From the NCBI RefSeq assembly GCF_000722545.1, contig NZ_JNVM01000047.1, positions 12,767 to 52,766 of the forward strand: a stretch of DNA of 40,000 nucleotides. Direction: 5' to 3'. The notes beneath the pieces were generated by a model. The model did no database searches and was not told the DNA's origin. It saw only the letters and a program-made list of their open reading frames with translations. Positions 1 through 21,846 of the stretch are shown in pieces (the first letter of the stretch is position 1; every line of letters starts with the position of its first letter). Source of the DNA: Paenibacillus tyrfis (GTDB taxonomy: Bacteria > Bacillota > Bacilli > Paenibacillales > NBRC-103111). A program made the translations under genes and the position numbers.

Positions 1-2433
1 TATATATTCCGGTAGCAACGTTATGATAGGGAACGGATGTAACTTTTGCTGCAACATTCGTTCGATCGTATGTAATATCAAATCCGTACACGGATGAATA
101 ACGACAGTGGGAACATGTGACCATCGATAAGATGGCGCATCTATATGGTTCGTAAATAACGGTTCTGATCCCAGATGAAATTGCGACAAATTTAATTCGT
201 TCAATAGGGCTTCTTCTGCGCATAGTTGCCGAATACCATGATCAATCAAATAACGCAAAAGCATGGTCCATCTTTCCCTTTTTCGTCCAGCCAGTCGACT
301 AAAGCTTCTTTCCGGCCATGGATCAAAGAACAACACCGCCTTGTCGCTGTTGTCCAATCGCCTGGATAACTGTTCGGTCAGACCCGGTCGCTTCTGCCAT
401 TGAATCAATCGTGATACTGCCATATTTGCATACGGCCCTTGCGCTTGTCGTCTGCAATTAGGACAACCGCCGCAAGAGGTTTGAACGCCGATAGCTTTGC
501 GTCTGTTCACACCCGGACGTTCTGGAATATGGTACACGTCTTTAAAGATGTCAGCGGCGCAACGCTTCCCTTGCAACAGTTCCTTCATCAGCACAAGTGA
601 TGTCTCACTAGCCTTAGAACTGAGTATCCTGAAAGGTTCTACTAAAGCCTTCCATGCGCCCTCCTGAAGATGGTCGTTGTGCAGGATGCGCACAAGCCGA
701 TGGGTGTTACCGTTATATTCTGCTTTTGAATTAGATTGATCCCATTTCTGCCAGTCCATCTCGATTAGTTTGGACCGGGACATCAAGTTCAACGTTCGGA
801 TATTCCAGGCGGCATTGCGAGCCGATCCCCCCATATCAATATCTCTCGAATCAAGGGAAGGAGAGACGTCAATCGGAACGAGATAACAGTCTGGATATCG
901 CGTATCAATTTGCTTTTGCTGGAACATCGCTCTCCAACGCTGACGCCCGCGTTCGATGGTAATAAGCATTTTGCCGCTCATCTCTTCGGCGATTCGGATA
1001 TCGTCGTCCGTGTATACCACAAGCGACATAGCAGCGTTGCCGTCGCGTCCGCCGCGTCCAACTTCCTGATAGTAGCGATCCAAACTTTCGGGTACACAGG
1101 CGTGGATAACTGCTCGTACATCTGGTTGGTCGACGCCAAGGCCAAAGGCTGAAGTCGCGACAACAATGTCGATATCACGATTCCGCCAAGCGGAGACAAT
1201 CACCTCGCGCTTGCGGTTCGGGGTCTTACCAGTAACTACTTCCAAACGGCCATAACCGGCCGCCCTTAAAGTCACCCCCCAATCCTCCGCATCCTGAACT
1301 TCCGATGTGTAAAGAATAAGCGGCCGCGGCAAGTGGAAAACTGCATCAAAAATAAATCGTTCTTTATCTTGCTTGTTGTTGGCCCGCTTGAACCAGTAGG
1401 CCGGTTCAGGTCGCAATTGAACGGCTGAACAATGTTTGAACGGCCCAGGAGCCCCGAACAAATCTTCCATTGCATCCAAGGACACCTCCGTTATGGTCGC
1501 CGACAATAGTACCGTCCGGAGAGTCGGCGCCTCACGCATCAAATGTTTGCGCCATCCAGCCAACTCTTGAAAAGCCGGCCTAAATTCATCGCCCCATAAT
1601 TCGATCATATGTGCTTCGTCAATAAACAGATAACGCAAATATCCCCGGCCAGCAGCTAGTTGCAACGGCACAAATAGCGATTTCATGATCGCCTCCGGAG
1701 AAGTAAAGACAATTCGCTGCGTGCCGTCGCGTATCCGACCGCGGATTCCTTCATTCTCCGCTTCCCGTCCACTAAAATATGCAGTTGAATGCGAAATAAA
1801 GGGGGCCATCGCTCGTTCCTGATCAATAGCCAGAGCCACTGTAGGGACAACGACGATCGACACCCCTTCAATTTCCGATGCTATAATCGAGGGTAGATGG
1901 GCACATAAGCTTTTCCCTGTTCCAGTAGGAAGGTTAACCACCAGCGTTGACCCTTCCGGTGCAGTCAGTATGCTTCGGATCGCATCTGCTTGTCCCTGAC
2001 TCCTGTAAGCGGAAAGTTTCATCTTCGATAAAAACGGATCCCCCTTCACGATATTATGTGTTTGTCGAGGGATTTTGGCAAATAAAGGATTCTCGACATC
2101 AGCAATCGACGAATCAGGTAGCCATTTAGGAATCCACGGGTGAGCCTTAATCAGTAATCGATCATTTTTTTGAACGATGACAGCAATTCCTGATTCTTCC
2201 CACACGTGTGGATCGGGCCATTCCGAATTGCGCGGAACCCACAGGATGGACGATAAGCCACCTTGTTTCTCCGCATTATGTCTCAAAATGCTACGAATCA
2301 GAGACACCTTGTCACGCGGCGAAGTTCTTCGCGAGTGCATACTATTTTTAAACCGCAAATAAAAACAGGTAAAGAAACCTCCTGTCGAATGAGACGTTTC
2401 AATCAACTGCACAAATTCGTCATACTCATTCAT
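1..2433 (-). CDS. RecQ-family SF2 DNA helicase with a long C-terminal extension. The gene is 3'-partial and runs off the left edge of the window.
   Basis: This gene is absent from the ORF track because it has no stop in the window. I translated the minus strand by hand from the ATG at 2433-2431 and found 811 uninterrupted codons down to position 1. Motifs read: NLPTGTGKSL (motif I), LFIDEAHMI (DEAH), VATSAFGLGVDQPDVR, and YYQEVGRGGRDG (RecQ-type motif VI), followed by a CGGCPNC cysteine cluster. Its ATG overlaps the stop of the upstream SNF2 gene by 8 nt. Confidence 0.85.
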   Translation of the reverse strand, partial: MNEYDEFVQLIETSHSTGGFFTCFYLRFKNSMHSRRTSPRDKVSLIRSILRHNAEKQGGLSSILWVPRNSEWPDPHVWEESGIAVIVQKNDRLLIKAHPWIPKWLPDSSIADVENPLFAKIPRQTHNIVKGDPFLSKMKLSAYRSQGQADAIRSILTAPEGSTLVVNLPTGTGKSLCAHLPSIIASEIEGVSIVVVPTVALAIDQERAMAPFISHSTAYFSGREAENEGIRGRIRDGTQRIVFTSPEAIMKSLFVPLQLAAGRGYLRYLFIDEAHMIELWGDEFRPAFQELAGWRKHLMREAPTLRTVLLSATITEVSLDAMEDLFGAPGPFKHCSAVQLRPEPAYWFKRANNKQDKERFIFDAVFHLPRPLILYTSEVQDAEDWGVTLRAAGYGRLEVVTGKTPNRKREVIVSAWRNRDIDIVVATSAFGLGVDQPDVRAVIHACVPESLDRYYQEVGRGGRDGNAAMSLVVYTDDDIRIAEEMSGKMLITIERGRQRWRAMFQQKQIDTRYPDCYLVPIDVSPSLDSRDIDMGGSARNAAWNIRTLNLMSRSKLIEMDWQKWDQSNSKAEYNGNTHRLVRILHNDHLQEGAWKALVEPFRILSSKASETSLVLMKELLQGKRCAADIFKDVYHIPERPGVNRRKAIGVQTSCGGCPNCRRQAQGPYANMAVSRLIQWQKRPGLTEQLSRRLDNSDKAVLFFDPWPERSFSRLAGRKRERWTMLLRYLIDHGIRQLCAEEALLNELNLSQFHLGSEPLFTNHIDAPSYRWSHVPTVVIHPCTDLILHTIERMLQQKLHPFPIITLLPEYI

Positions 2434-5400
2434 CGTAGTCGCCACGAAGTTCACTTCCCGATAATATAATAAATCCAACGGAATCCAAACGAACATGCGG
2501 CCTCTTAAGGCCAGCCTGCATTGCTTGGTGTAGTTCAACTTCAAAAGCCAAATCAATTCGATCGAATTGTCCATGTGTTTGCTGCGTTTTGGCTCTTAAC
2601 TCCAACTGCTGAAGTTGCCGGTTCAACTCCTGTTGCATAGACTGCAGTGCTTCCTCACATGCGGTGACTACAGACGCATCTTGCAGCAAAAACAGTTCCG
2701 AACTTTCACGGGCACAGGAGCATAAGGAAGGCCATTGGTCGGGCGAAATAAATTCATCGATTACATTCAATCGTTCTTTGGTTAAATTCGTATCGTTGCC
2801 GAAATCACTCAATTTCTCAAATGGAGCCTTCAGGGCTTCTATAACATTGGAGTCAGTCACCGGACTGCCACTTGGTGTAACGTTAACGGTATACATAAAG
2901 GGCGGAAAATACCGATCCATTTTACGCTGCAAAGCTTTTCTGTTATACGCCTTACCGTCTATGGAAGAATAGATTGCTGCTGCTGCGGAGACGTCGCCTT
3001 CGACGATATAGTTGAAGCTAAACCCGAACCACTCGAAACCTTTCATCGGGTTCCAACTCTTCACTTTGCGCCAGAAAGCAAAGGTTCGCCCACGATCGTC
3101 CCATTTGATGTCATCATCCAGCATTTGAATAAAAGGATCTCCAATACGATATATTCGACAATTTTCTTGGGAGACGGCCGTCATCCGATCATAACTGCCA
3201 TCCCTGCTGTTTATCTTCGCCATTGCAATTGAAGTAGAGATAGGCAAAAGTGTTTGCCGAGTTGGGAAGTAAGTTAATACCCCCGTGTGTGAAGTGGATG
3301 GTTTACAGGCAAATTTCAATGCATTATGAACCCATCCCTCCATGTTTTTTTGAATACGTGCGTGATCAGATTCATATGCCACCAAATTCTGAACAAGTCC
3401 TTGCACAAAGTCATCGCTCGAATCCATTTCGTCCAATGCATTTTGTTCCTCCACCTGAATCCTTTCCTCTTCTAGGCGATCTGCGAAAGACTCCCTTACA
3501 TATCGAATAAAACTTTGAGCACCCTCAGCATAAAACCTACCATAAATTTCCGGAATGATTCGGTCAATCAGAAATTGCAATGACGAAATGGAGTTTTGAA
3601 ACACCTTAAGTCCTTCATTCAAGAATATATACCAGGCCTCAATCAACGATGGATGATCCGGTCCGGTGAATACATGGGTAGAAAACATCCGCGTACGTCC
3701 TAGACGATCTACACGACCTATTCTTTGCTCCATGCGACCGGGTTGTGTAAGCAAATCGAAATGCACAATCGTATCCGCAAATTGCAAATTGCGTCCTAAC
3801 TCGCCTGAAGGATCGCAGACCAGTACGCAGCACTGCTCATCGTATCTGAAACGCTCAATCTCTTGTTCCACTTGGACATCGCTCAATGTTTTGAGATATT
3901 GGGCAATTACCTGAGTTTTGTATATAGCTCTCAGATGATTAAGGATGAAATTTGCCGCGGCATAGTGTCCCGTAAAAACAACAATTTTAGGTGGCGTCTT
4001 TTTCTTTTTCCGTGCCTGTTCCGTAACGGTATCAATTACCATGACAAGGTGATCCATTCTGTCCTCTTCTTCGACGGAACAATCAACTGTGAGGAGCAAC
4101 GACTCAAGCAACTCTCGTTCACCTGAAAATAGTGGCACTTCGCGCAATAGTTCGACCAATTCCGTATCGTAGAGCTCCGTGAACGAGTCGCTTATCTCCC
4201 CAGACAAGCGTGCCTCTAGTACGTGCCGGAATACCGGTAGTGCAGAATTCGATAACTCCAATAAATGAAGAAACAACCTTTGATACCCAGTTGAGTGGGA
4301 AAATCCACACTCCTGCCATTCTTCCCTTTCTAATGCCCATGCCGTTTCACGCCATTCATCCATTAAATCTTGAACGGAGGCAGTTCGACTATCGAAATCG
4401 TATTCCTCAGCTACCGAGAGTTCACCACGTTCAAGATCACGTCCATACTTAAAAAGTTGTTTTACCGTATCACGACGATTTCGCAACATTCTCCGGTGTA
4501 GTCGGTACGTTTCCGTCAAATGATTCCGAATGATCCGTACCGCTGCTATGCGCTTATCTTCATCATTTTTATCAAGGGCATCTAATAAACGCTCCACACT
4601 GCCGGACAACAAATAATCATCTGACACGAGTTCCAACAACTTTTCAGCGGATCTACGTAAAAGAAGTGGCTTTGCATTCTCACGTAAAGTGAATAATGTT
4701 CGCCCGATGTGTTGTCGAATGGAGATAAGTTTTTGAAATCTTTCCACCTCATCAAGATGATAATGATCCGGATCCAGCAGATGAAGCATCGCTAAGAAAT
4801 CTTGTTCATGATGCAATACTGGCGTTGCAGATAACAATAACAACCCGCGGGCGGGCTTCGTTAACTGTTCGATCAACTGATACTGCTTTCGTTCTTCTTC
4901 TATTAGACTTGATGCCTTCGCTGCGATAATATGCGCTTCATCAATAACGATTAAGTCCCAATCATTCTTTTGCAGCAGGTTATCATTAAAAGACAGCCTT
5001 TCCGTCGCACACCATGTAAGCTGATTGGTGAATTCGTACAAATTGCATTTGTTATGTAATTCTGTTTGCCACTGCACCTGTAAAAATAAAGGAACCACAA
5101 TGAGAACGGAAGAGTTTGGATAATCCAATAAAAACTGACGGATTATAACTCCTGCTTCAACCGTTTTTCCGAGACCTACCTCGTCTGCAAGTAGATATCG
5201 GGGGACTGGATCTTCCGATACTCTCCGAATAACCTCCACTTGATGAGGATACAGTGAAACAGAAGATGAAAGAAGTCCTTCCATCCCACGTCCTACTTTC
5301 CGTTGATTCATCATTTCTTGCACAAAAAGGGTACGCTTACGATTAAAAAAAGCCGTCTCATGTCCCTTATTGATGAGAATCTCCATAGGATCTTCAATCG

Positions 5401-5761
5401 GCAGTGAGCAACGGACGAATAAATTTTCTGAGTCAATGTAATTGGAATAGGAGTCGGGAAAGTCAACCTGGTAATCTGTTGCATCGAATCCTGTAATACG
5501 GCCAATCATCCAGCGTTTCTTCTTCGAATCCCAATAATAGCATCGTGTTTGAATGTCTGGCTTAACAAATTGTATTTCGCTCAATGCGATATTAAAACGT
5601 TTTCTATTTTCTATTGAAATGAAGTACTCTACAACGACCGTTCCATTAAAGTGGTCGATTACTTTACCTATACCCAGATCGTTTCTAGTTCTAACGAACC
5701 TTCCAATTACCTTGTTTTCCATGAGAATAGACCTATCCATTTCAAATTTAGTAAATGCCAA
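2426..5761 (-). CDS. SNF2/RapA-like helicase-ATPase of 1111 aa.
   Basis: The ORF is in the track. Motifs: LLADEVGLGKTVEAG (motif I), WDLIVIDEAHII (DExH), LLLSATPV (motif III) and EQRIGRVDRLGR (motif VI). About 190 aa precede the ATPase core and about 400 aa follow it. The listed start is TTG with no convincing SD sequence, so the true start is uncertain. Confidence 0.85.
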   Translation of the reverse strand: MAFTKFEMDRSILMENKVIGRFVRTRNDLGIGKVIDHFNGTVVVEYFISIENRKRFNIALSEIQFVKPDIQTRCYYWDSKKKRWMIGRITGFDATDYQVDFPDSYSNYIDSENLFVRCSLPIEDPMEILINKGHETAFFNRKRTLFVQEMMNQRKVGRGMEGLLSSSVSLYPHQVEVIRRVSEDPVPRYLLADEVGLGKTVEAGVIIRQFLLDYPNSSVLIVVPLFLQVQWQTELHNKCNLYEFTNQLTWCATERLSFNDNLLQKNDWDLIVIDEAHIIAAKASSLIEEERKQYQLIEQLTKPARGLLLLSATPVLHHEQDFLAMLHLLDPDHYHLDEVERFQKLISIRQHIGRTLFTLRENAKPLLLRRSAEKLLELVSDDYLLSGSVERLLDALDKNDEDKRIAAVRIIRNHLTETYRLHRRMLRNRRDTVKQLFKYGRDLERGELSVAEEYDFDSRTASVQDLMDEWRETAWALEREEWQECGFSHSTGYQRLFLHLLELSNSALPVFRHVLEARLSGEISDSFTELYDTELVELLREVPLFSGERELLESLLLTVDCSVEEEDRMDHLVMVIDTVTEQARKKKKTPPKIVVFTGHYAAANFILNHLRAIYKTQVIAQYLKTLSDVQVEQEIERFRYDEQCCVLVCDPSGELGRNLQFADTIVHFDLLTQPGRMEQRIGRVDRLGRTRMFSTHVFTGPDHPSLIEAWYIFLNEGLKVFQNSISSLQFLIDRIIPEIYGRFYAEGAQSFIRYVRESFADRLEEERIQVEEQNALDEMDSSDDFVQGLVQNLVAYESDHARIQKNMEGWVHNALKFACKPSTSHTGVLTYFPTRQTLLPISTSIAMAKINSRDGSYDRMTAVSQENCRIYRIGDPFIQMLDDDIKWDDRGRTFAFWRKVKSWNPMKGFEWFGFSFNYIVEGDVSAAAAIYSSIDGKAYNRKALQRKMDRYFPPFMYTVNVTPSGSPVTDSNVIEALKAPFEKLSDFGNDTNLTKERLNVIDEFISPDQWPSLCSCARESSELFLLQDASVVTACEEALQSMQQELNRQLQQLELRAKTQQTHGQFDRIDLAFEVELHQAMQAGLKRPHVRLDSVGFIILSGSELRGDYDE

Positions 5762-5908
5762 AAGGAAAAAACCACTTCTTTAGAATCACTCAAGTGGTAA
5801 TCCTTTCTATAAATGTTACCATAAAACCCGAATGGAGTGTTACCCAAAATCAAAATTAGCACATAAATAAAAAGGGCTGTCCAAATAAGTCCCTAATCAA
5901 TTTTGAAA

Positions 5909-5954
5909 CAACAAAAACGAGCATTCCAATATAAAGGAATGCTCGTTTTTGTTG
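5909..5954. terminator. Intrinsic terminator hairpin directly downstream of queE. It separates the modification genes from the helicase genes.
   Basis: The hairpin has a perfect 19-bp stem. The arms are caacaaaaacgagcattcc (5909-5927) and ggaatgctcgtttttgttg (5936-5954), with an 8-nt loop. T-rich sequence follows on both strands. Confidence 0.8.
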
Positions 5955-5956
5955 CT

Positions 5957-6685: not shown

Positions 6686-7119
6686 GACCTATCTCCTATC
6701 CGGGGGCGATAGATCACATAGCTAGTAGGAGTTTCTCTCAAAAAAATTTGCAGACATTTGGGTTGGTTAGGAAGCGAATCTAGATAATCTTGTATTATTG
6801 TCCAAGCAGTTCGCGCAACAACTTCAGTGCTAGGAAATATGTTTCCTTGCTCCTCATTAAATAGAGGATCTTCATTGATTAATTTATGGTCAAATCGATC
6901 ATGTATAAGTGCCTTAAGATCAGAGAAATTAACAAGAAACCCCGTATCATCTAAGACATCGCCAACGATACAAACATTCATAAAATAAGTGTGACCATGT
7001 ATTCTACTGCACTTTCCAGCGAGATCACTTGGTATGTAATGCGCGGCTGCAAATTGAAGATCTTTATTCAATTCGTAAACAAACGAATGGTTCACAGAAG
7101 GATATATTTGTTGAAGCAT
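6682..7119 (-). CDS. queD: 6-carboxy-5,6,7,8-tetrahydropterin synthase.
   Basis: The motif CSRIHGHTY (CxxxHGH) is present and the size is about 145 aa. I prefer the ATG at 7119, which is preceded by GGAGGA at a 7-nt spacing. The track ORF starts five codons earlier at a TTG (7134). Confidence 0.9.
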   Translation of the reverse strand: MLQQIYPSVNHSFVYELNKDLQFAAAHYIPSDLAGKCSRIHGHTYFMNVCIVGDVLDDTGFLVNFSDLKALIHDRFDHKLINEDPLFNEEQGNIFPSTEVVARTAWTIIQDYLDSLPNQPKCLQIFLRETPTSYVIYRPRIGDRS

Positions 7120-7149
7120 ACTATCGTCCTCCAATTGAGGTATTTCTTT

Positions 7150-7803: not shown

Positions 7804-7872
7804 TAGCTTTACCCACTTTCTTACCAGTCTCATTTCTAATGATAACAGATGCCCTATCATATCGAAAGTCGA

Positions 7873-10800
7873 CTATTTATTGTCCCCTACAACTAATCTA
7901 ATCTCTACAACATCAAATAAATTTGGGAACTTTTCTTTAATTTCATCCAGCAGACGTTTCCATTGTACTGGAGGAAGTGTGCTATAACCATTTTCAACCA
8001 GTAATCGGACATGACGTTTTATTGATGGTCTGATTTGTGGACTTTCATTTATCTTTTCTAGTAGGTGATAGATATTTCCAATGTCTTCACAATCAAGGTC
8101 ATTTCTGATTACTTGGAGAAGATGCAATTTTGTTTGCTCATGCTGAAGTTTTCTTTCGGCCCAATCTCTTAGTTGATAGAAATCTATAGATTGCCATTCA
8201 GAAATTAAGGTAACCAATTCAGAACCGATAAGTTTCTTTTTCTTTAGACGATTCGCACAATTTGCTAATCTAAATTGGAGGTTCTTAATATGATCTAAAA
8301 CTTCTAACTTAATTTGAAGGCTCAGCAGATGCTTCACTAAATTCCGCGGAGTGAGAGCAAGGCAGTTGTTTAAACTTGATAGTTCCTGCACAATAGTTGT
8401 TAAGCTTGCTTTATTCGCCTCCAATTCAGACCACACTACTTCATCTTTTTCAGTAATTTCCGCTTCATCTCGTTCATAGTTTGTTTGCATGTTACACTCA
8501 GTAAGAAAGTCTGCAACTTCAAGTGCCATCTCGTCGAATTGTTTGGTTAACTGTTTTATCTCATCGTTTAAAGTAGTAGCCCTCTTATATTGAGCGGCAA
8601 GTTCTTGATTTTCTAATTCTTGTTCCAGCAAAGTGTAAGTAACAAAGTCTTGTTGTGTAACAATCTTCTTCTCGCTAAAAGCTTTAATCCGTCCAGCAAG
8701 TTCTATCAATTTCAAATTGCCCGAACCAATTAAAAATGGAATCATAGATGTTCTTTTCTGAAATGACTGCTTAAAGCTTTCGTGAAGTAGATCAGAGTAT
8801 CTGTGGTAACTTTCTTTCAATTGTGATAGAAATACCCTTAGAGTAGTGTTTCCAATTTGATAGTTTTCTAGGGTGTTCGATGGCGTGAGATTTCTAAACC
8901 AACGATCAAATTCTTCATTCGTCAACATGGCATTGCTTGGCGGCTGAAAAAAATTATCACGTAACAAGTACCAATCTGAATAACAATCCTCAAGCAGGGC
9001 TGTTAATTCTGTTCGGAAGGGAGAATATTGAATTACATTTGAGGCCCATAATGATTCACTGTATACTCGGGCATTTTGAACCCAATTTTTCATCCCGTAC
9101 ACAAAAACAGGAAGTTTCAACCCAAGAGCCTGCTCAAGAGAATTAAGCCATTCCTCATGGATTGACTCTGCTTGGTGTATCCATTTAGCAATTTCATACT
9201 CATTAGAAATTTTTTGAAATGTCTTGACCTTTTCTGAATATTTCATTGTTTGAAAGTTGGCAATTTGAATAGCAATATAACCCCTACTAACGCTTATTGT
9301 AGACTCATCATTGTTATCCTGGAGTGTAATTGGATACCGTGTTCGATTCACAACTTCATTTCGCTGAATGGTTGAGGAGGTTCTCGATGTGAATGAGCGA
9401 GACATATGAACCCCCTTTATAGCATCATGCACCAATGCCGCCACCCCAGATCTAACCGGTAATAATAATTCTTCATTTACTTCTCTTCCTTCCACCCAAT
9501 CTCTAACTACTTCTTTTTCATTGAAACCAGTATTACTATCTCTTGTCGGCTCTTCGAGAAATTGCTGCTCCTCTCTTAAGCTATTTTCAATACTATTTAG
9601 TTTAACAACGATTTGGCTGTCCTTATATCCAAAGTGCTTTAATATAGGTTCAGAAATTGTAATCTTCCCCGCTTCTTCAGATGCATACCATTCTGCGAGA
9701 GTTTTGATTAAAACATCAGTATGCTCGGCGAACATTTCCCTTCTAATAAGAGGAAGAATTCTACTAATATCTTTCTTGCCTCTTAGAAAAAAGCGAATAA
9801 CTTCTTTACTATTCAAAATCATGTAACGTAATTTCCCTTTTCCCATTGGAATTGCATCATACGTTCGCCTTAACATATGACTATTAAATGGAAGCAACTG
9901 CACTTCAATATCGCTCAATTTAGAATCATTATTGCTTGATTCTAGGGTATTACTTGAACATTGGTTGTAGTAAGGACATTCAGGAGAGCATTTAAAGCCT
10001 TGTGTTGCTTTCAACTGTGTAAGGTAATTAGCCATATATGGAATTACTTGTTTACGATCTAGGTTGAAAAAGTCTTTTCCTGACTCGTCAGATAGCCATA
10101 ACTTTTTCACACGGTCATTGATAGTATCAAGATTCTTGATTCTTTGAGTAAGACTAAATCCTTTTTCTGTGTCCTGAACCGCGCCAGGAGTTAGACCAAT
10201 TACTACATCCCAATTACCCTCTTCTAACGTAATAAGTTGATCCAATATATTTGTTGCATAAATGTTAACCGATTGAACAAGATCGTCAATTAGTAGCAAT
10301 GGACGGATACCCTTGCTTTTTATCTGCTGCGACAATTGTTTAAACAGGGTTCCAATGTCCCGTCCCTCAAAAAGAAAATGGTCTAGTTTCCGAGAAAGAG
10401 TTTGTCGAAATGGTGCATACTCCAGGGAGATATTAAGAGTCGTATTAGCAAGTAAAGATTCGAACTGCTCACGATGCAGGACTTCTAGTGGTTTTTTGAT
10501 TTTTCCTCGTTTAATTTGAGAAGTAAATTCAACAATGTTATTCTCAATTATAGGTCTCAACAATAGTGCTGCTGGAACAATTTCCTCATCGGATTCCAGC
10601 GATTCGGCAAGTGCTGTCCAAACCATTTGATTAATAAGCGTAATAGGCTTTTTGAGTAATAGCCCCCACTTATCTTCATCAATGCAAACATCTAAAGACA
10701 AATCTAATGCATCTAAACATTTTTTGATCAGTGTCTGAGGGTTTAACTCCGTTCGTGAAATTCGTATCACCGGTCGTTCAGATACTTCCACTAACCATTT

Positions 10801-11064
10801 ATCTTTTAGCCAACGAAGCAGTTCAGATTTCCCTGATCCCGTTGAACCAAATACTAAATAAACCCTGTTGCCATCAGAATCAACTTCTTTGAGTTCTTCC
10901 AGTAATTCGCCTTCCGTAACCTCGGCGATCAGTTGACTATCATTAAATCTATGCATTACTTGAGGGAAATGGGTTTTCCTAAAATACTCAGGCGATTGGT
11001 CGTAACGCTCGTCTGCAGTCCCTACTAAAAGTTTAAGCGAATTTTTGTTGAGACAAGGCATCAT
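7873..11064 (-). CDS. Large P-loop NTPase of 1063 aa. The family is not recognised.
   Basis: Walker A is VFGSTGSGKSELLRWL and Walker B-like is RPLLLIDDLVQS. A long, probably helical C-terminal region follows. The gene overlaps the upstream 258-aa ORF by 32 nt, which suggests coupling. Confidence 0.7.
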   Translation of the reverse strand: MMPCLNKNSLKLLVGTADERYDQSPEYFRKTHFPQVMHRFNDSQLIAEVTEGELLEELKEVDSDGNRVYLVFGSTGSGKSELLRWLKDKWLVEVSERPVIRISRTELNPQTLIKKCLDALDLSLDVCIDEDKWGLLLKKPITLINQMVWTALAESLESDEEIVPAALLLRPIIENNIVEFTSQIKRGKIKKPLEVLHREQFESLLANTTLNISLEYAPFRQTLSRKLDHFLFEGRDIGTLFKQLSQQIKSKGIRPLLLIDDLVQSVNIYATNILDQLITLEEGNWDVVIGLTPGAVQDTEKGFSLTQRIKNLDTINDRVKKLWLSDESGKDFFNLDRKQVIPYMANYLTQLKATQGFKCSPECPYYNQCSSNTLESSNNDSKLSDIEVQLLPFNSHMLRRTYDAIPMGKGKLRYMILNSKEVIRFFLRGKKDISRILPLIRREMFAEHTDVLIKTLAEWYASEEAGKITISEPILKHFGYKDSQIVVKLNSIENSLREEQQFLEEPTRDSNTGFNEKEVVRDWVEGREVNEELLLPVRSGVAALVHDAIKGVHMSRSFTSRTSSTIQRNEVVNRTRYPITLQDNNDESTISVSRGYIAIQIANFQTMKYSEKVKTFQKISNEYEIAKWIHQAESIHEEWLNSLEQALGLKLPVFVYGMKNWVQNARVYSESLWASNVIQYSPFRTELTALLEDCYSDWYLLRDNFFQPPSNAMLTNEEFDRWFRNLTPSNTLENYQIGNTTLRVFLSQLKESYHRYSDLLHESFKQSFQKRTSMIPFLIGSGNLKLIELAGRIKAFSEKKIVTQQDFVTYTLLEQELENQELAAQYKRATTLNDEIKQLTKQFDEMALEVADFLTECNMQTNYERDEAEITEKDEVVWSELEANKASLTTIVQELSSLNNCLALTPRNLVKHLLSLQIKLEVLDHIKNLQFRLANCANRLKKKKLIGSELVTLISEWQSIDFYQLRDWAERKLQHEQTKLHLLQVIRNDLDCEDIGNIYHLLEKINESPQIRPSIKRHVRLLVENGYSTLPPVQWKRLLDEIKEKFPNLFDVVEIRLVVGDNK

Positions 11065-11809
11065 TTAAATCACATCTCCTCTCCACCTTTATCCAATTGA
11101 AGTCATTTTTAGGTCCATATGATTTATAGGGTAAATCTTGCACGTAACTCAACTCCAACGCCCCTTCTTGATGTAACGCCATTAAAGAAAAGATAACCCC
11201 TCTGTATATATTTCCTTCAGATGTTAAGCACGGTATGACCGGATGAATAATATTTTCACAAAATGGATGCAATCCACCCTCCCATGCCTCATTCCCCTTA
11301 ATGATACTTTTCATTAACGAAAGCTGTGGAAGTGCATAGAAACCTGAGTATATACGTCTACCCAATCCCCAGCACTCCATCATTCGCTTCCAGGCATTAA
11401 CTTTCTCGTGCCCGACTAATGTTTTCATTAATTGGCTATTGATTTGATAGTGAATATTACTCACAAACAATCGATCCGGCTTTACAAATAACTGTTCAAA
11501 CAGGGAAGCAAATATTTTATCAAGCGAATCGCTAGGTAGATCTTCAGACATTGAAAGTTCCCTTAACTTAAAAAAAACCTCTTTGTTGCACCATGGCTTG
11601 TCTTGTAGTACAAAAAATTGAGATTTGTCTTTATATACAAACTGTAGATCCTCTAATACGGTCAAGCCGCATTCAATTAAAGATGTAATGTCCCCGTTAT
11701 CACCATACTGAAATCTTGTTTTTAACATCTTTACATCCAGTCCTGGATTAGTTCTTAAATTTTCATAAATCACTTCAATTTCCGGTCCGTAGCACATTTG
11801 AAACAACAT
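11033..11809 (-). CDS. Hypothetical protein of 258 aa with no recognisable motif.
   Basis: This is a long ORF packed into the operon. It overlaps both neighbouring genes, by 35 nt upstream and 32 nt downstream. An alternative start exists at M5 (11797). Confidence 0.55.
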   Translation of the reverse strand: MLFQMCYGPEIEVIYENLRTNPGLDVKMLKTRFQYGDNGDITSLIECGLTVLEDLQFVYKDKSQFFVLQDKPWCNKEVFFKLRELSMSEDLPSDSLDKIFASLFEQLFVKPDRLFVSNIHYQINSQLMKTLVGHEKVNAWKRMMECWGLGRRIYSGFYALPQLSLMKSIIKGNEAWEGGLHPFCENIIHPVIPCLTSEGNIYRGVIFSLMALHQEGALELSYVQDLPYKSYGPKNDFNWIKVERRCDLNDALSQQKFA

Positions 11810-12707
11810 GCTCGCTCCTCCTCTTCTTATTTTCTAAAATATCGTTAAATGTTCTAAGTAAGTGGTAATAGTTATGGATTGATCTTAACTTCATATATTC
11901 TCTTGGGGATGGGACTAATATTTGTCTTGCATCGTTTTCACATACAGGGCATTCACAATGAAGCGGATTTTCCAATCGCGGACTTGTGGGTTTAGCTCGA
12001 GATTCTGAGAGGAAAAAGGTTCTAAATGGCCTGCTGTAGAACACTTGAAAGAACGCAGCTGCCATCGTTGGTCGTGTTGAATCAAATGAGCTTACACCAA
12101 TATCAACCATTGCACTGAGTTGGGGAATTCCTGTTACTCCAAATACATGCAGGTTTGAAGGCCCTACAACATCTGCTGCCCTTCTGATCATTTCAATTTG
12201 CTGGGTCTGATGTTTAAAAAGTAACGATCCAATTCCAAACTTCGTATACCCCATTTTGATCAGTTCATAAGCTGAAAACTCAATACTAGCTTGGTCATAA
12301 CCTTGAATGACTCCCATTGGTTGAACAGATTTCGGAAGATTACATTTATGAAAAATATTGAAATACTCATACGCATTAAATAGCGTTCTTTCTATCGCCA
12401 TGTAACGTTCAGATAAAGAGAACTTATTTAACAATGGTTCGTCAAAATGAACCATTCGAACAATTGCTTCTTTTTCGCAATCTTCTAAGAGCGAGAGTTG
12501 AATATCAAAAACATCTTTTAGCGGAGGCCTAACTTTTTGTTTAACATAAAACACTGACCCACAGTCTAGTATTAGCTTGCTAGGTTTATTTTTATACCTT
12601 TTTACTCCTCCTCTATTGTCTGGTATTGCACTAATTAAAACTGGACATTGAGGAAAGTAATCACAAAATATTGCATCACTATGTGACCAACCAATATAAA
12701 ATTCCAT
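11775..12707 (-). CDS. TGT-fold transglycosylase, DpdA-like, 310 aa.
   Basis: TGT-type motifs are present in the canonical order: ILDCGSVFY (compare DSGGFQ), MGVIQG, GYTKFGIGSL, HVFGVTG and GVSSFDSTRP (the catalytic Asp region). The zinc motif CECPVC is followed by His in IHNYYH. An AGGAG SD sequence lies 8 nt upstream of the ATG. Confidence 0.8.
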   Translation of the reverse strand: MEFYIGWSHSDAIFCDYFPQCPVLISAIPDNRGGVKRYKNKPSKLILDCGSVFYVKQKVRPPLKDVFDIQLSLLEDCEKEAIVRMVHFDEPLLNKFSLSERYMAIERTLFNAYEYFNIFHKCNLPKSVQPMGVIQGYDQASIEFSAYELIKMGYTKFGIGSLLFKHQTQQIEMIRRAADVVGPSNLHVFGVTGIPQLSAMVDIGVSSFDSTRPTMAAAFFQVFYSRPFRTFFLSESRAKPTSPRLENPLHCECPVCENDARQILVPSPREYMKLRSIHNYYHLLRTFNDILENKKRRSEHVVSNVLRTGN

Positions 12708-12731
12708 ATCCTCATCTCCTAGCTCAAATAA

Positions 12732-12768
12732 TATACGTGATTATACGTGATAATTTGATTGTATCACA
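12732..12768 (-). promoter_or_regulatory. Candidate promoter/operator for the DpdA-like operon segment.
   Basis: A perfect tandem 10-mer, tatacgtgat x2, occupies 12732-12751. On the minus strand its junction forms TATAAT (12740-12745), about 33 nt upstream of the ATG. The -35 candidate TGTGAT (12763-12768) is weak. An imperfect palindrome, GTGATA-N9-TATCAC, overlaps the region. Confidence 0.4.
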
Positions 12769-12796
12769 GTTCACCATCACTCATCTACTCTTTGAA

Positions 12797-12825
12797 TATA
12801 AAAAAAAGAAGCCATCAGGCTTCTT
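12797..12825 (-). terminator. Intrinsic terminator immediately after the 264-aa ORF, inside the gene cluster.
   Basis: The stem pairs aagaagcc (12806-12813) with ggcttctt (12818-12825). The 4-nt loop contains the stop codon. On the minus strand the hairpin is followed by a T-run of 8 or more. Confidence 0.7.
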
Positions 12826-13609
12826 TTATCCATTGTCTCCATATTTCATATATTAAATCGCGTTGTGCATCATTAAATTTAAAACTTCCTTTATTAACAA
12901 GTAGCACTGGGTTGTCTCGGTCAAAAAACTGACCATTCCAATTCTCATAATGAAATTCTTCTGTGAGTAGCGGCCGCGGCTGATTGGTTAGATGAGAATC
13001 CTCAGTCCACTGCTCCATGAAATATCTAATATAGCAATACCAGGCAATGGCTGAGTCAGCAATGGATTTTTTTCGAAATTGTTTCCTCTGTGCTACAGGA
13101 AGATATCCTAGTTCAGGATAATGATTCATTATAGATTCAACATATTTAATTAAATCTTTAGCTAATTGAGGACATAGGCTATGTTCAACTCGATACCTTT
13201 GAAAGTCCTTGAAAATATCATGCAGCGATCTAATGGTCATTAATTTTGTGGAGTTGCTGCTTATTTTCTCCCCCTTCTCAATCAACCGCTCAAAACGCTC
13301 ATATGACATTAATTGATGCATACAGTAGCTAGGAAAGTACTGGGTTTCAGATACAATTAGAACGACGTATTCATCACTGATACTGCCGTTGGGCAATTTA
13401 TAAGTAAACCGGGGGTTCGTCACTTGTAACTTATCGTTTAAAAAACTTACCACAGTATCATAATTTACTAAAATGACGTCTTCGCCAACTACATCAGACT
13501 GAATTATAGAAAAACCCCAGTCTTTAATCACACCTAATGGCAGTACAGCAAGATACACGTCACTATTCTTTCTGGTTAAATTTCTTACGTTTTCAAAAGT
13601 AAAAACCAT
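12815..13609 (-). CDS. Hypothetical protein of 264 aa with no recognisable motif.
   Basis: This is a long ORF in operon context. The SD-like sequence GGGGGA lies upstream of the ATG. I saw no ParB/DGQHR, nuclease or methyltransferase motif. Confidence 0.55.
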   Translation of the reverse strand: MVFTFENVRNLTRKNSDVYLAVLPLGVIKDWGFSIIQSDVVGEDVILVNYDTVVSFLNDKLQVTNPRFTYKLPNGSISDEYVVLIVSETQYFPSYCMHQLMSYERFERLIEKGEKISSNSTKLMTIRSLHDIFKDFQRYRVEHSLCPQLAKDLIKYVESIMNHYPELGYLPVAQRKQFRKKSIADSAIAWYCYIRYFMEQWTEDSHLTNQPRPLLTEEFHYENWNGQFFDRDNPVLLVNKGSFKFNDAQRDLIYEIWRQWIKEA

Positions 13610-13623
13610 GGAATTTCCCCCAA

Positions 13624-13664
13624 CGCAAATATGCCTTAGTGTATCACACTAAGGCATATTTGCG
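13624..13664. repeat. Perfect 19-bp inverted repeat with a 3-nt loop, filling most of the 57-bp intergenic gap.
   Basis: The arms are cgcaaatatgccttagtgt and acactaaggcatatttgcg, checked base by base. No U-tract follows on the coding (minus) strand. The hairpin abuts the RBS of the 264-aa ORF. Confidence 0.9.
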
Positions 13665-13666
13665 CA

Positions 13667-15697
13667 CTAATTATTCCACTGTTTTTTTAATTCTTGAATT
13701 TGACTGTAGTAGACATGAGTATTATGAAACCCTCTTCGTCTGTTTCTATTATTACCTCTAAATACAATCACATCGATTCCAATTTCCTTACATATATTAC
13801 AGCCACATTGTTCCCATGGACGTTCAGACAAAACCTCTCTATAGAGATCCTCATGCACTTCGCGCTTCTCCCCTAGAATTTTATCATATTCCAGTATAGC
13901 TTCAAGTGTGGATGATAATTCCCTTTTCCCAGCACTGAATTCCCTTAAAGCGATTAATGCCTCCTGTTCGAGCCTCTTATATTGATCAAACTCAATCTCA
14001 TCATTATTTTGCATCATTTTTTTTACTCTTCCGGACGTTTCTTTTGCTTCAGGTATTCTAATCGCTGTGTAATGTTTACCACTTAAGGTATGATAGTTAT
14101 GTCCAGTTCCTAACCACGCTCTTCTTAAGGGAGAAGATGAGTCAAACGAAGTCACGCCTAGTTTATGGAAGGATTCCATTGTTTTCATATCTCGTGCAAC
14201 TCCAAACAAGTGCATACGAAACGTAGGACTCGGAATAACAGGTGCTATTTCTTTAAGAATTTCATATATTTTTTCAGATTGTTCTCTGGCTAAACCACCC
14301 AAGGCAATATAGTCATAACCTAGTCCAATAAGATGCTCTACTGCTCTACGGAAAGAAGGTGGGTCCCATCCTTGAACTATACCTATCGGATGAAACTGAT
14401 AATTCCTTGTCTCCTTATTCTCCCTATACATCCGTATAAACTCTTCCGCCATAGTAAGGGTTAGTTCATAACGCTGATTTCTTATATTTTCATCTCTTTG
14501 AAAAGGGCCTACTATTAGATGGTCAATTGACACTCCATAATCAAACCCCAGTTTGTGGTAGTAGTCAATGATCTCTTGAGTAGTATAAGGCGGGACTTCT
14601 TTATCAATATAACTAAAGGCACCGCAATCACCCATAATCGGATATTCTCTAGGAAGTCGATAAAATTCGTGCAATCCCATATCTTGAATCATCTGATTTT
14701 TCAACTTTGTAGCATTATCGATGTTCACTTTAGAAACAAGGAGTCCATCAAATTGAGGTCTTTCAAAAATCTGATGAGCGTACACATCGTTTTCTAATGG
14801 ATTTCTATTCTTCTCAGAGAAATCACTCATAAAATCATAATTTGGATCGACCCTATCATCATTCTCTGGAAGATAAAATTTTGGTTCTTCAATGCAATTT
14901 ATAGCAACTAACTCATCTGGCACAGGAAACATTTCATTATAAAACAGTAATAAGTCTTCATTTCCTGATATGTCACTAAAAAGTTCAAGTTGTTTTTTAG
15001 AGGAAATTGAATTGAAAATATACTCTCTAATTTGATTAGGACTATACATAATTGCGTCCCACTTTAGATCAATGTTATCCGAAATGATGCTCTTTAATAA
15101 ATGTGAAAAAAGATAACCCTTGATTCCTATCAAACCATATTTAAATGTCTTAGCTTCTTTTTCCCCAATAGTTAATACATGATAATCGTCCCAATTTAGA
15201 ATCCTAGAACGACTGGATGCTCCAGCAAAAAAGATCGCTTTTTGATTACTTTGTAGCTTTAATGGCCACTCCACTGCTTGCAAATATTTATCTCCAAGTA
15301 AGAAAAAAATAAGATCATAGTCCGCAACTTTTGTTTGCAAAGCTTGTGTAATTTCAAGTTCGCGCGCCCATTTTTTTATAGTCTGCGAGTCCATTGTATT
15401 GAAAGTCACTTCATAGGGAACAATCTGAGAGTTTTCATTCAAAAGACCATAACCCGCTGAAATAATGCATAGGTCAATTTTTCCACCTTGTTGCCGATAT
15501 TCTTTAATACCACTCATTAGAGCAAGGTGCTGACTCCCTGTGTACATTTCATCAGCACGTTCTTTGAATTCCAACAATTCTGCTTCTCTTTGTTTTAATA
15601 CATCTTTATTCTTGAAATCATCGAATACAAGTTGATTTATCGGTTTATGTAACTTCTCTCCAGTACAAGAAGTGACAACAAGAATACGTTTTGACAA
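13667..15697 (-). CDS. Fusion protein of 676 aa. An N-terminal DUF6884/YaaA-like domain is joined to a C-terminal TGT-fold (DpdA-like) transglycosylase.
   Basis: The C-terminal half carries MGDCGAFSY, IGIVQG, GYDYIALGGL, HLFGVA, GVTSFDSSSP and the zinc motif CGCNIC followed by His (FHNTH). The N-terminal ~200 aa carry ILVVTSCTGEK, then MYTG, then CIISAGYGLL...IVPYEVTF...KKWA. From memory, this pattern matches DUF6884 and resembles the YaaA/DUF328 core. The start is TTG, with AAAGGATGGG upstream. Confidence 0.75.
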   Translation of the reverse strand: MSKRILVVTSCTGEKLHKPINQLVFDDFKNKDVLKQREAELLEFKERADEMYTGSQHLALMSGIKEYRQQGGKIDLCIISAGYGLLNENSQIVPYEVTFNTMDSQTIKKWARELEITQALQTKVADYDLIFFLLGDKYLQAVEWPLKLQSNQKAIFFAGASSRSRILNWDDYHVLTIGEKEAKTFKYGLIGIKGYLFSHLLKSIISDNIDLKWDAIMYSPNQIREYIFNSISSKKQLELFSDISGNEDLLLFYNEMFPVPDELVAINCIEEPKFYLPENDDRVDPNYDFMSDFSEKNRNPLENDVYAHQIFERPQFDGLLVSKVNIDNATKLKNQMIQDMGLHEFYRLPREYPIMGDCGAFSYIDKEVPPYTTQEIIDYYHKLGFDYGVSIDHLIVGPFQRDENIRNQRYELTLTMAEEFIRMYRENKETRNYQFHPIGIVQGWDPPSFRRAVEHLIGLGYDYIALGGLAREQSEKIYEILKEIAPVIPSPTFRMHLFGVARDMKTMESFHKLGVTSFDSSSPLRRAWLGTGHNYHTLSGKHYTAIRIPEAKETSGRVKKMMQNNDEIEFDQYKRLEQEALIALREFSAGKRELSSTLEAILEYDKILGEKREVHEDLYREVLSERPWEQCGCNICKEIGIDVIVFRGNNRNRRRGFHNTHVYYSQIQELKKQWNN

Positions 15698-15728
15698 AAA
15701 AATCCCATCCTTTACTCACACCAATATA

Positions 15729-15752
15729 AAATAGGGCGAGAACGCCCTATTT
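15729..15752 (-). terminator. Terminator-like hairpin overlapping the stop codon of the transporter gene.
   Basis: The stem pairs aaatagggcg with cgccctattt (10 bp) around a 4-nt loop. It is followed by tatatt on the minus strand. The U-tract is weak, so termination may be only partial. Confidence 0.5.
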
Positions 15753-16265
15753 CCAAACAACTTTTGCATGCTTTAAAAAAATTTTTTTCACAATAATTGC
15801 AGCAAATAATTGAACCAATGTCTTAACAATGATTTGACCAACAATCGCCAGAAATACAGCATTCCAGGGAAGAATATTGGCCCCCAATGGTGATAGTCCC
15901 ACAACAACAAAAATAATACTATCTAGTATTCCTCCAACAATACCACTGTATGCTACCCTCATATGAAAAGGTAGTTTAAGGCGTGAATAAATTTCTGTAT
16001 CTGTAGTCTCGGATACCGCAAATGTAATGATTGAAGCAAATACAATCCAAAGTGTATCCCCAAGTAAATATGATGTTAATGCCGATAAAACCATTGCTAT
16101 TAAAATGAGTAAATAGGTCTTCCGCCTACCAACAAAATTTTGCACAAAATCGCGGAATATAAATGTTGCCCCTATTATAAATGTCCCTGCCGGAATAATA
16201 AAGGGTCCAATAAAAAATGGGGGTATTCCTGCTGTTACGACATTTGAAGAAATAATAGCCAGCAA
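15747..16265 (-). CDS. Queuosine-precursor (preQ0/preQ1) transporter of the YhhQ/VUT family. This is a short form.
   Basis: The protein is polytopic and hydrophobic. GATFIFRDFVQNFVGRR resembles the YhhQ core (compare FLxTDxxxExYG), and GGILDSIIFVVVG resembles the C-terminal family motif. The listed start is TTG. An in-frame ATT at 16292 has a better-placed SD sequence (AAGAGG, 16302-16307). An in-frame stop at 16299-16301 caps the N-terminus. Confidence 0.65.
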   Translation of the reverse strand: MLAIISSNVVTAGIPPFFIGPFIIPAGTFIIGATFIFRDFVQNFVGRRKTYLLILIAMVLSALTSYLLGDTLWIVFASIITFAVSETTDTEIYSRLKLPFHMRVAYSGIVGGILDSIIFVVVGLSPLGANILPWNAVFLAIVGQIIVKTLVQLFAAIIVKKIFLKHAKVVWK

Positions 16266-16474
16266 ATAAGCTACAATTGTTAAATATTTAATTTTACATC
16301 ACCTCTTCAATTCAATCCATCATTAATTATAACACCACTTTTTGTTCCGAGCTACCCTTGCCAAGCTAATTAATTTATCCAATCATTGGCTAGCTTGAAG
16401 GTACAGGGCAACATCTTGTTCTACTTGATAATCTATCAAATCGAGTTATTTTAGGAAGGGTATAAATACAATAG

Positions 16475-21833: not shown

Positions 21834-21846
21834 GGAGATCCAATAG

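Follow-up and report, generated by a model that had tools for sequence, protein, structure and literature searches.

In this work we analysed a 40,000-nt stretch of Paenibacillus tyrfis DNA (the window, in which all gene coordinates are counted) and describe a locus of 11 minus-strand genes in one orientation (window 1-16265) that is almost certainly a Dpd system, namely its modification half and the start of its restriction half. This assignment follows from DpdA, DpdE and DpdF matches above their cut-offs, from the DpdG-K genes of a sister locus, from the DpdA residues and from the presence of a DUF6884 domain. In the known Dpd system, DpdA swaps guanine for preQ0 in DNA only with ATP hydrolysis by the ParB-like DpdB, DpdC independently turns the product, 2'-deoxy-preQ0 (dPreQ0), into the amide dADG, and DpdD-K restrict unmodified DNA (PMC10164549). 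What is actually new here is a conserved gene trio, together with orf264, in a context in which we find no DpdB; this variant is apparently undescribed. The trio encodes a second enzyme of the tRNA-guanine transglycosylase (TGT) fold, TGT2, a predicted triple winged-helix protein, orf258, and a 1063-amino-acid (aa) P-loop NTPase. We lean, with slightly better than even confidence, towards a Dpd restriction-modification variant in which this translationally coupled trio takes the ATP-dependent role of DpdB, a replacement step that we infer.

Domain calls were made with Pfam, NCBIfam and PADLOC models on the 11 locus proteins, each score being read against its own cut-off, and 9 of the 11 products gave significant family matches. 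Loci of relatives are labelled where needed (L001, P. algorifonticola; L005, Bacillus; L006, P. polymyxa SC2, CP002213; L009, Desulfotomaculum; L091, Enterobacter cloacae pPOL9A). In transcription order the locus contains:

15747-16265, minus strand: yhhQ, 172 aa, preQ0/queuosine-precursor transporter type (Pfam Vut_1 58.6 bits, cut-off 27.2)
13667-15697, minus strand: DpdC-like (DUF6884)/DpdA fusion, 676 aa, with DUF6884 at about aa 1-160 and DpdA at about aa 271-676
12815-13609, minus strand: orf264, orphan protein
12804-12827, minus strand: terminator-like hairpin, 10-bp stem and T-run at the end of orf264
12740-12767, minus strand: promoter-like site GTGATA-16-TATAAT, 10/12 consensus match, upstream of TGT2
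11775-12707, minus strand: TGT2, 310 aa, TGT-fold enzyme
11033-11809, minus strand: orf258, predicted triple winged helix
7873-11064, minus strand: P-loop NTPase, 1063 aa, a distant DpdH/BrxC-type paralogue
7150-7860, minus strand: queC, 7-cyano-7-deazaguanine synthase (TIGR00364 275 bits, cut-off 150; Pfam QueC 284 bits)
6682-7134, minus strand: queD, 6-carboxytetrahydropterin synthase (Pfam PTPS 100.6 bits, cut-off 22.4)
5957-6685, minus strand: queE, 7-carboxy-7-deazaguanine synthase of the B. subtilis type (TIGR03365 377 bits, cut-off 206)
2426-5761, minus strand: dpdE, SNF2-type helicase (NCBIfam DpdE 941 bits, cut-off 500)
1-2433, minus strand: dpdF, RecQ-like helicase, 811 aa to the window edge (NCBIfam DpdF 858 bits, cut-off 550)

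These coordinates agree with an earlier sequence-only reading of the same DNA, which had described eleven co-oriented, tightly packed minus-strand genes in this order and place, among them a dedicated transporter and two orphan proteins, orf264 and orf258, all of which we retain. Overlaps occur between TGT2 and orf258 (35 nt), orf258 and the NTPase gene (32 nt), queD and queE (4 nt) and dpdE and dpdF (8 nt), and the remaining intergenic gaps measure 12-107 nt (12 nt from the NTPase gene to queC, 107 nt from orf264 to TGT2), with the exception of 195 nt ahead of dpdE. The hairpin (12827-12804) is the strongest in the region, and with the promoter-like site (12767-12740) it divides yhhQ-dpdC~A-orf264 from TGT2-orf258-NTPase-queCDE; both signals are consensus matches only, and the total of terminator-like sites is not above the shuffle expectation. 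A tRNA search found none, Rfam at gathering thresholds returned no family, the preQ1 riboswitch included, and megablast of both window halves against plasmids gave nothing useful. All five genes of the cassette (fusion, orf264, TGT2, orf258, NTPase) are under purifying selection between P. tyrfis and P. algorifonticola, with ratios of nonsynonymous to synonymous substitution (dN/dS) of 0.08-0.20, and of 0.11-0.20 for the trio. Because orf264 (dN/dS 0.18) and orf258 (0.17) combine these low values with unchanged lengths in P. algorifonticola and with homologues elsewhere, they are real genes.

Canonical Dpd components and the search for DpdB

The fusion protein matches the NCBIfam DpdA model (NF041059) over aa 273-669 with 455 bits, against a cut-off of 200, and its DpdA region finds the solved DpdA of Salmonella enterica serovar Montevideo (7ui4) with E 3.8e-90. 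The key residues of that enzyme, known from its crystal structure (PMC10164549), correspond to the following residues of the fusion:

General acid/base: S. Montevideo DpdA Asp95, fusion D357
Base recognition: S. Montevideo DpdA Asp130, fusion D392
Base recognition: S. Montevideo DpdA His181, fusion Q442
Nucleophile: S. Montevideo DpdA Asp256, fusion D519
Base-flipping aromatic: S. Montevideo DpdA Phe265, fusion W528
Zinc site: S. Montevideo DpdA CxCx2Cx22H, fusion C631/C633/C636/H658

As judged from these correspondences, the 676-aa protein holds an intact DpdA DNA-guanine transglycosylase domain behind a DpdC-like domain. Bacterial TGTs carry Gln at the position equivalent to DpdA His181. The N-terminus scores 49 bits with Pfam DUF6884 (cut-off 30), the domain named as that of DpdC in the GATOR-GC paper, and E 1.5e-11 with PADLOC DpdC; its hhalign comparison with Enterobacter DpdC reaches 95.9% probability over just DpdC residues 17-138 of 283, and none of the locus proteins matches NCBIfam DpdC.

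By their family matches QueC, QueD and QueE can make preQ0, with FolE, encoded outside the locus, necessarily supplied by the host, and YhhQ is of the preQ0-import type. QueD is slightly under the cut-off of TIGR03367 (84.6 bits, cut-off 89.25), and YhhQ is under that of TIGR00697 (42 bits, cut-off 50.95). Homologues of YhhQ are found within the same cassette in L001, L006, L007, L011 and four metagenome loci; yhhQ and preQ0 genes inside dpd clusters were already documented (PMC5699537).

On the restriction side, the DpdE match spans the full length of the NCBIfam model from residue 20 (PADLOC DpdE 736 bits), and the DpdF match covers model positions 20-797 of 813 (PADLOC DpdF 658 bits). Nucleotide identity between window 4-16369 and the collinear locus of P. 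algorifonticola is 81-89%, and it is only 69-75% in the flanking genes rlmCD and dagK. The orthologue of DpdF is 841-848 aa long in L001 and L002 and is followed there by DpdG-K; in P. algorifonticola these are DpdG (114 bits, cut-off 80), DpdH (835, cut-off 450), a DpdI-like gene that is under its cut-off (52 bits, cut-off 150), DpdJ (1819, cut-off 800) and the PLD nuclease DpdK (198, cut-off 100). As DpdG-K, including the nuclease DpdK, continue the sister locus, the restriction half appears ordinary, its DpdG-K part being deduced from the sister genome, and the nuclease of P. tyrfis probably lies just beyond window position 1. DpdD is not among the 11 proteins; in the Dethiobacter, Desulfotomaculum and metagenome relatives it comes after DpdK, a position that would fall off the window, so that its absence cannot be claimed. 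Between queE and dpdE, where the window has the 195-nt gap, P. algorifonticola carries two extra genes (L001 15356-16497, minus strand; 325 and 54 aa) without a Pfam match.

DpdB was sought in several ways. None of the 11 proteins matches DpdB in NCBIfam or PADLOC, and no DndB-type Pfam domain occurs among the called genes of L001, L005, L006, L008, L009 and L011. The Enterobacter DpdB from the pPOL9A cluster, used as a tblastn query, found nothing in about 90 related loci, and phmmer --max against 69 unassigned neighbouring open reading frames (ORFs) gave a best E of 0.27, with no DGQ(Q/H)R motif. Our neighbourhood counts are based on 29 distinct loci, each 9 kb or longer (Bacilli, Dethiobacter, Desulfotomaculum and metagenomes), and these contain 0 DpdB matches. 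The absence of DpdB is therefore well supported, not absolute, a single proteobacterial query having limited sensitivity. Set against the dpdA-K family, the locus has DpdA, DpdE and DpdF, DpdB was not found, and DpdC is recognizable over part of its length, as a fused domain.

TGT2, orf258, orf264 and the large NTPase

TGT2 matches Pfam TGT with 55 bits (cut-off 26), the generic TGT superfamily model with 41.7 bits (cut-off 47.6) and the NCBIfam DpdA model with 75 bits, which does not reach the cut-off of 200. The solved structure nearest to it is DpdA (7ui4, E 1.4e-6), and it is nearer to DpdA, with about 25% identity, than to any tRNA TGT. Its motifs comprise the general-acid Asp (D48), VIQG, the nucleophile D209 in S-x-DS-x-RP and a CxCxxC...H zinc site. 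Residues D48, D89, Q135, D209, C251/C253/C256 and H278 are invariant in an alignment of 27 sequences and kept in at least 97% of 82 sequences (at least 80% for Q135). TGT2 is without the insertion Ins8, which makes up about 30% of the DpdA protein (PMC10164549), and its nucleophile Asp and zinc motif are separated by only about 40 residues. By its score and its lack of Ins8 it falls outside the DpdA family, and by its catalytic Asp pair, its Asp/Gln and its zinc site it belongs to the TGT superfamily. The DpdA subfamilies known are bDpdA and the viral DpdA1-4 (PMC10516641); TGT2 matches none of those that could be tested, and no relative of it was found in PHROGs, in 50,697 phage genomes (INPHARED) or in IMG/VR. 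TGT2 is a candidate for a new cellular DpdA-like subfamily, minimal in size and with its catalytic residues intact. Its homologues are annotated by NCBI as queuine tRNA-ribosyltransferase, and if TGT2 acts on DNA this tRNA-enzyme label misleads genome annotation.

The orf258 family comprises 50 representative clusters among 1.84 billion proteins, all of about 250 aa. An AlphaFold2 model built from 42 sequences (pLDDT 92.1, pTM 0.87) contains three helix-helix-helix-hairpin units, so that orf258 is predicted to consist of three tandem winged helices. The top PDB fold matches of this model are tandem winged-helix proteins (SelB WH2-4), the best at E 8e-3 and none significant, and a profile search of PDB sequences with the orf258 alignment gave nothing below E 0.8. 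For orf264 there is no Pfam, NCBIfam or PADLOC match, only a marginal one in PHROGs (phrog_5732, E 0.0056), and nothing below E 0.97 among PDB sequences; its single-sequence AlphaFold2 model (pLDDT 34) is unusable. Orthologues of orf264 are present in L001, L005, L006 and L015, always directly upstream of TGT2, and no relative was detected outside Bacillales cassettes, which suggests an orphan specific to the Bacillales form of the cassette. In hhalign comparisons with small profiles of DpdD, G, H and I, neither orf258 nor orf264 exceeded 5% probability.

The 1063-aa NTPase shows 100% identity to a P. tyrfis entry annotated as a hypothetical protein. It has a Walker A motif GSTGSGKS (G73-S80, K79) and a Walker B motif LLIDD (D260/D261), both conserved in 116 homologues. 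Over aa 26-482 it aligns with DpdH at 97.8% hhalign probability; BLASTP against DpdH gives E 8e-7 in the P-loop region, and a Cys cluster and an L-PF(N/T) motif are common to both proteins. On the NCBIfam DpdH model (NF041065) it scores 30 bits over aa 24-118 only, against a cut-off of 450, and so stands outside DpdH itself. Its C-terminal part of about 600 aa is variable, and no relative was found among PDB sequences. Canonical DpdH coexists with this NTPase in L002 and L003. On these comparisons the protein is an extra, distant paralogue of DpdH.

The NTPase family comprises 209 clusters and the TGT2 family 91, both confined to Bacillota. Carriers among the Bacilli are Paenibacillus, Brevibacillus, Bacillus, Neobacillus, Priestia, Peribacillus, Halobacillus, Tumebacillus, Laceyella and Thermoactinomyces, and more distant NTPase homologues occur in Dethiobacter, Desulfotomaculum and Desulfocucumis. 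More than 15 named genomes have TGT2 and NTPase homologues on contigs of equal size, and therefore probably on the same contig, and a metagenome scan yielded 77 loci with TGT2 relatives. TGT2, orf258 and NTPase genes are adjacent in 25 of the 29 distinct loci, and among these 25 trio loci the DpdC~DpdA fusion is also present in 17 and at least one DpdD-K gene in 19. The five-gene cassette (fusion, orf264, TGT2, orf258, NTPase) is found in Paenibacillus and Bacillus. The overlapping genes, the adjacency, the shared contigs, the low dN/dS and the conserved catalytic and Walker residues together indicate that the trio is a conserved functional unit.

The surroundings of the trio vary. In Bacillus loci it lies directly upstream of dpdE with no intervening gene, and in non-Bacillales loci TGT2 adjoins DpdD. 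Dethiobacter has the order DpdH-I-J-K-D, then a divergent TGT2, then orf256-NTPase-HTH-DpdC~DpdA-YhhQ-QueC (HTH, helix-turn-helix). The Desulfotomaculum locus has DpdH-K, DpdD and the trio, with no fusion within 10 kb beyond the NTPase gene, so that TGT2 is its only visible TGT. DpdD and the trio occur together in L008, L009 and L011. In P. polymyxa SC2 (L006 15017-20124) the cassette is followed not by dpdE but by a 955-aa protein and a GajB-like UvrD helicase; GajB-like helicases adjoin the trio in L028 and L080 too and may be an alternative effector module. In the Bacillus locus (L005 2541-5591) genes for an EVE-HNH protein, a MazG-like protein and an SLFN-type helicase/STAND protein precede the cassette; they may be a modification-dependent restriction system beside a modification system. 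In the metagenome locus L080 (7774-10897) DpdA (390 aa) and a DUF6884 protein (248 aa) are encoded separately beside a TGT2-like gene, with no NTPase and with a DDE transposase next to TGT2; the layout is unfused and possibly ancestral, or else degraded. In L058 and L040 the trio stands alone within defence islands, and its neighbours encode a SIR2-STAND-FGE-sulfatase protein, an integrase and a DUF6094 methyltransferase-helicase.

These results bear on most of what the sequence-only reading had proposed. Its relationship of the locus to Dpd holds, as do its two TGT paralogues (one the DpdA of the fusion, the other TGT2), the lack of a ParB-like DpdB by NCBIfam, PADLOC, tblastn, phmmer and motif search, and the lack of a free-standing DpdC, DUF6884 occurring only as a domain fused to DpdA. 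A one-to-one match to DpdA-K, which it had named as a possible refutation, was not seen, since orf264, TGT2, orf258 and the NTPase fall outside; nor do the TGT-like proteins score as ordinary tRNA-guanine transglycosylases, one part of the other refutation that it had named, one being DpdA and the other closer to DpdA. Its different large NTPase is indeed non-canonical and far under the DpdH cut-off, but is an extra paralogue and not a replacement, since sister loci keep DpdH. It was right to suspect that the locus continues, as it does in the sister genome with DpdG-K, and the nuclease that it did not see probably lies in that continuation, DpdK being present there. The SNF2 and RecQ-like helicases of its gene list are canonical DpdE and DpdF, not different helicases. 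In sum, it sensed a non-canonical modification module correctly and overstated the difference on the helicase and nuclease side.

Possible roles of the trio

If the trio stands in for DpdB, DpdA would put preQ0 in the place of guanine in host DNA, the DpdC-like domain attached to it would hydrate the nitrile to give dADG, and DpdE-K would restrict DNA without the mark. The DpdH/BrxC-like ATPase and the winged-helix adaptor orf258, which probably binds DNA, would load or position one or both transglycosylases on DNA and supply the ATP-dependent step. TGT2 could assist DpdA in inserting the base or could serve sites of its own, and in some lineages it would be the sole visible transglycosylase; orf264 would be a Bacillales-specific accessory. 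A precedent comes from the BREX-related capture (BRC) systems, which combine a TGT with P-loop NTPases and lack both DpdB and DpdC; their authors propose that the NTPase replaces DpdB (PMC12839542). Several points speak against this interpretation. The presence of dPreQ0 or dADG in the host and the activities of TGT2 and of the NTPase are predictions from sequence. DpdG-K were observed in relatives, beyond the edge of this window, and formation of dADG is uncertain because the fusion can be aligned with just the first half of DpdC. DpdB could lie beyond the surveyed sequence, and one Enterobacter query is weak for a very divergent DpdB. Had the ATPase alone replaced DpdB, the second intact TGT would have no explanation. 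Finally, the trio of L058 (6651-10888) and L040 has no dpd or que gene within 10 kb, and these stand-alone copies, like the terminator/promoter-like pair, fit an independent module.

The same observations can be read in other ways. The trio could be the specificity or sensing unit of restriction, TGT2 probing target guanines and, with the ATPase and the winged-helix protein, licensing or blocking DpdE-K, while DpdC~DpdA modifies unaided or with host factors. This idea is modelled on BREX, where the PglX modifier works with the BrxC ATPase and defines the restricted motif; the NTPase is a paralogue of the restriction-module protein DpdH, described as BrxC-like (bioRxiv 2025.09.15.676423), and the position of the trio upstream of dpdE in Bacillus and of TGT2 next to DpdD in non-Bacillales would suit it. 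However, the full catalytic apparatus of TGT2, including its nucleophile Asp, would be needless for a pure reader, canonical Dpd restricts without such a trio, and the trio also occurs with other neighbours (P. polymyxa) or with no nearby Dpd restriction genes (L058, L040), and we consider a sensing unit unlikely. The copies that stand alone next to a SIR2-STAND protein, more than 10 kb from any Dpd or que gene, would be accommodated if the trio (perhaps together with orf264) were a defence system in its own right that is merely co-located with Dpd, for example an ATP-driven base-exchange or glycosylase-like machine attacking or erasing 7-deazaguanine marks on phage DNA. Such a system would also agree with the promoter-like and terminator-like signals of its own and with a G+C content (GC) of 35-37% in the cassette against 43-49% in dpdE and dpdF, and glycosylases against 7-deazaguanine phages are known, of a different fold (bioRxiv 2025.10.29.685425). 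Against a separate system stand the fusion in 17 of 25 trio loci and Dpd restriction genes in 19 of 25, across distant Bacillota classes and far above the usual clustering in islands, the consistent lack of DpdB exactly where the trio is present, and queCDE only 12 nt downstream of the NTPase gene, all of which make it decidedly improbable.

It is also conceivable that this is an ordinary Dpd island in which orf264, orf258 or both are DpdB or DpdD diverged past recognition and TGT2 is a redundant duplicate. Dpd proteins do diverge fast, Enterobacter and Dethiobacter DpdD matching with only E 0.007 and the sister-locus DpdI falling under its NCBIfam cut-off. Yet the orf258 model has three winged helices and not a ParB/DndB fold, neither orf258 nor orf264 exceeds 5% in hhalign with the DpdD, G, I and H profiles, the DGQ[QH]R motif was not found, a real DpdD accompanies the trio in L008, L009 and L011, and TGT2 belongs to an old family conserved in its own right (91 clusters, about 25% identity to DpdA) and is no recent duplicate; an ordinary island is accordingly a very slight prospect. 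The NCBI label of the TGT2 homologues, and a TGT2 score near the cut-off of the generic TGT superfamily (41.7 against 47.6 bits), might suggest that the TGT paralogues act on tRNA, or that the que genes feed a deazapurine secondary metabolite, the DNA being unmodified in either case. To this we give scarcely any credence, as the fusion is DpdA at equivalog level with a DNA enzyme as its nearest solved structure, TGT2 is closer to DpdA than to tRNA TGTs, both TGTs lie in a DpdE-K context, and no nucleoside-antibiotic tailoring enzyme was found by Pfam or NCBIfam among the 11 proteins.

The replacement of DpdB by the trio, which we prefer, admits a more general form that we put forward tentatively, rating it somewhat short of an even chance. 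The three proteins of the trio may be a portable, ATP-driven and hitherto unrecognised DNA-guanine transglycosylase machine, in which a sixth, cellular DpdA-like subfamily comes with its own loader. It would take the place of DpdB in Bacillota, would be found with varied neighbours (DpdD-K, a GajB-like UvrD helicase with a partner of about 950 aa, or no Dpd gene), and may double as a self/non-self sensor, as PglX-BrxC does in BREX.

The island and comparison with known systems

The GC of the locus is 35-37% from yhhQ through the NTPase gene, 38-42% in queCDE, 43% in dpdE and 49% in dpdF, and flanking host genes have 59-64%. This gradient points to separate histories for the modification cassette and the restriction module, and the GC rise and the terminator/promoter-like pair are compatible with a locus assembled as a mosaic of modules. 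Between the Dpd locus and a host rlmCD-like gene stand four tyrosine recombinases:

19186-22785, plus strand: three consecutive tyrosine recombinases (513, 369 and 312 aa), adjacent or overlapping (Pfam Phage_integrase)
23487-24677, plus strand: fourth integrase (Pfam Phage_integrase), with an N-terminal SAM-like domain
24836-26362, minus strand: rlmCD-like host gene (TRAM/uracil-5-methyltransferase), whose 3' end the fourth integrase abuts

At about 24.8 kb the GC steps up from some 0.39 to 0.60-0.64. The segment 16370-24850 is missing from P. algorifonticola, in which the otherwise collinear island lies directly downstream of the same rlmCD gene, and the island seems to have inserted at the 3' end of rlmCD. 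By its foreign GC and its recombinases, the locus is one that P. tyrfis, a member of the Bacillota, acquired horizontally, as was earlier proposed with a mobile island in a Gram-positive host. The three recombinases and a small ORF (22772-23086) have a layout that resembles a recombinase-in-trio element. A 284-aa ORF without a Pfam match lies between the Dpd locus and the recombinases (18217-19071, plus strand). At 16565-16821 and 17386-17556, both minus strand, two short out-of-frame ORFs resemble, by eye, fragments of a decayed NlpC/P60-type peptidase gene, and a 56-aa ORF (MKKIFTVSEIAQYLNVS...) resembles an excisionase-type HTH protein; all of these would be island debris between yhhQ and the recombinases. 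Further away, a two-gene islet (32486-34295, plus strand; 244 and 360 aa, no Pfam match) has 42-43% GC in host DNA of 59-63% and may be a second small foreign insertion.

The searchable literature, whose coverage missed some key Dpd papers, yielded no account of the TGT2-orf258-NTPase trio. Tools that count DpdA and DpdE-K would probably call the locus "dpd". The largest survey of dpd islands consulted required dpdA and dpdB anchors and lists 11 Bacillota islands (PMC12235509). With these anchors it was blind to a DpdB-less form, and 7-deazaguanine systems in Gram-positive bacteria have therefore probably been undercounted, in number and in spread. Two questions on Dpd are open, why the base-exchange enzyme needs an ATPase (DpdB) and how the restriction complex discriminates modified DNA, and a DpdB-less variant with a DpdH paralogue, a predicted DNA-binding adaptor and a second intact transglycosylase offers a handle on both.

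Compared with canonical Dpd (S. enterica serovar Montevideo; E. cloacae pPOL9A), the P. tyrfis locus is alike in the DpdA active site, the CxCx2Cx22H zinc site, the DUF6884/DpdC-type domain, DpdE and DpdF in the window, DpdG-K in the sister locus and its location on a mobile island. It differs in having no DpdB, in having DpdC only as an N-terminal domain of DpdA with a recognizable first half, and in having four extra conserved genes, orf264, TGT2, orf258 and the DpdH-like NTPase. The layout differs as well: in E. cloacae pPOL9A dpdE-K,D is followed by divergent dpdB-A-C, whereas in P. tyrfis and its relatives DpdD-K lie beside TGT2, followed by orf258-NTPase-(YhhQ)-DpdC~A. The locus shares with BRC a TGT that occurs with BrxC-like/STAND P-loop NTPases and without DpdB (PMC12839542). 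In contrast with BRC, which lacks DpdC too, it has DpdE-K (DpdG-K by way of the sister locus) and the DpdA/DpdC fusion. BRC is defined by HerA/FtsK, PglZ, DUF6079 and DUF4007, often with GNAT (PMC12839542); HerA/FtsK, PglZ, DUF6079 and DUF4007 are all lacking from the 11 proteins at E ≤0.01, which places the locus outside BRC. The viral DpdA1-DpdA4 modify DNA without DpdB (PMC6884629, PMC10516641), and TGT2 is likewise a small, stand-alone, DpdB-less TGT fold that keeps the catalytic Asp and the zinc site; unlike them it is cellular, coupled to orf258 and an ATPase, and without phage matches. With the BrxC-like DpdH/DpdI the NTPase shares its N-terminal 450 aa or so, the Walker A and B motifs and the Cys cluster, whereas its C-terminal 600 aa or so are unrelated. 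Eukaryotic QTRT1/QTRT2 offers a further parallel, as two TGT paralogues encoded together make a hetero-oligomer possible. QTRT2 is a non-catalytic subunit; here, in contrast, both paralogues keep the nucleophile and general-acid Asp, and their substrate is presumed to be DNA.

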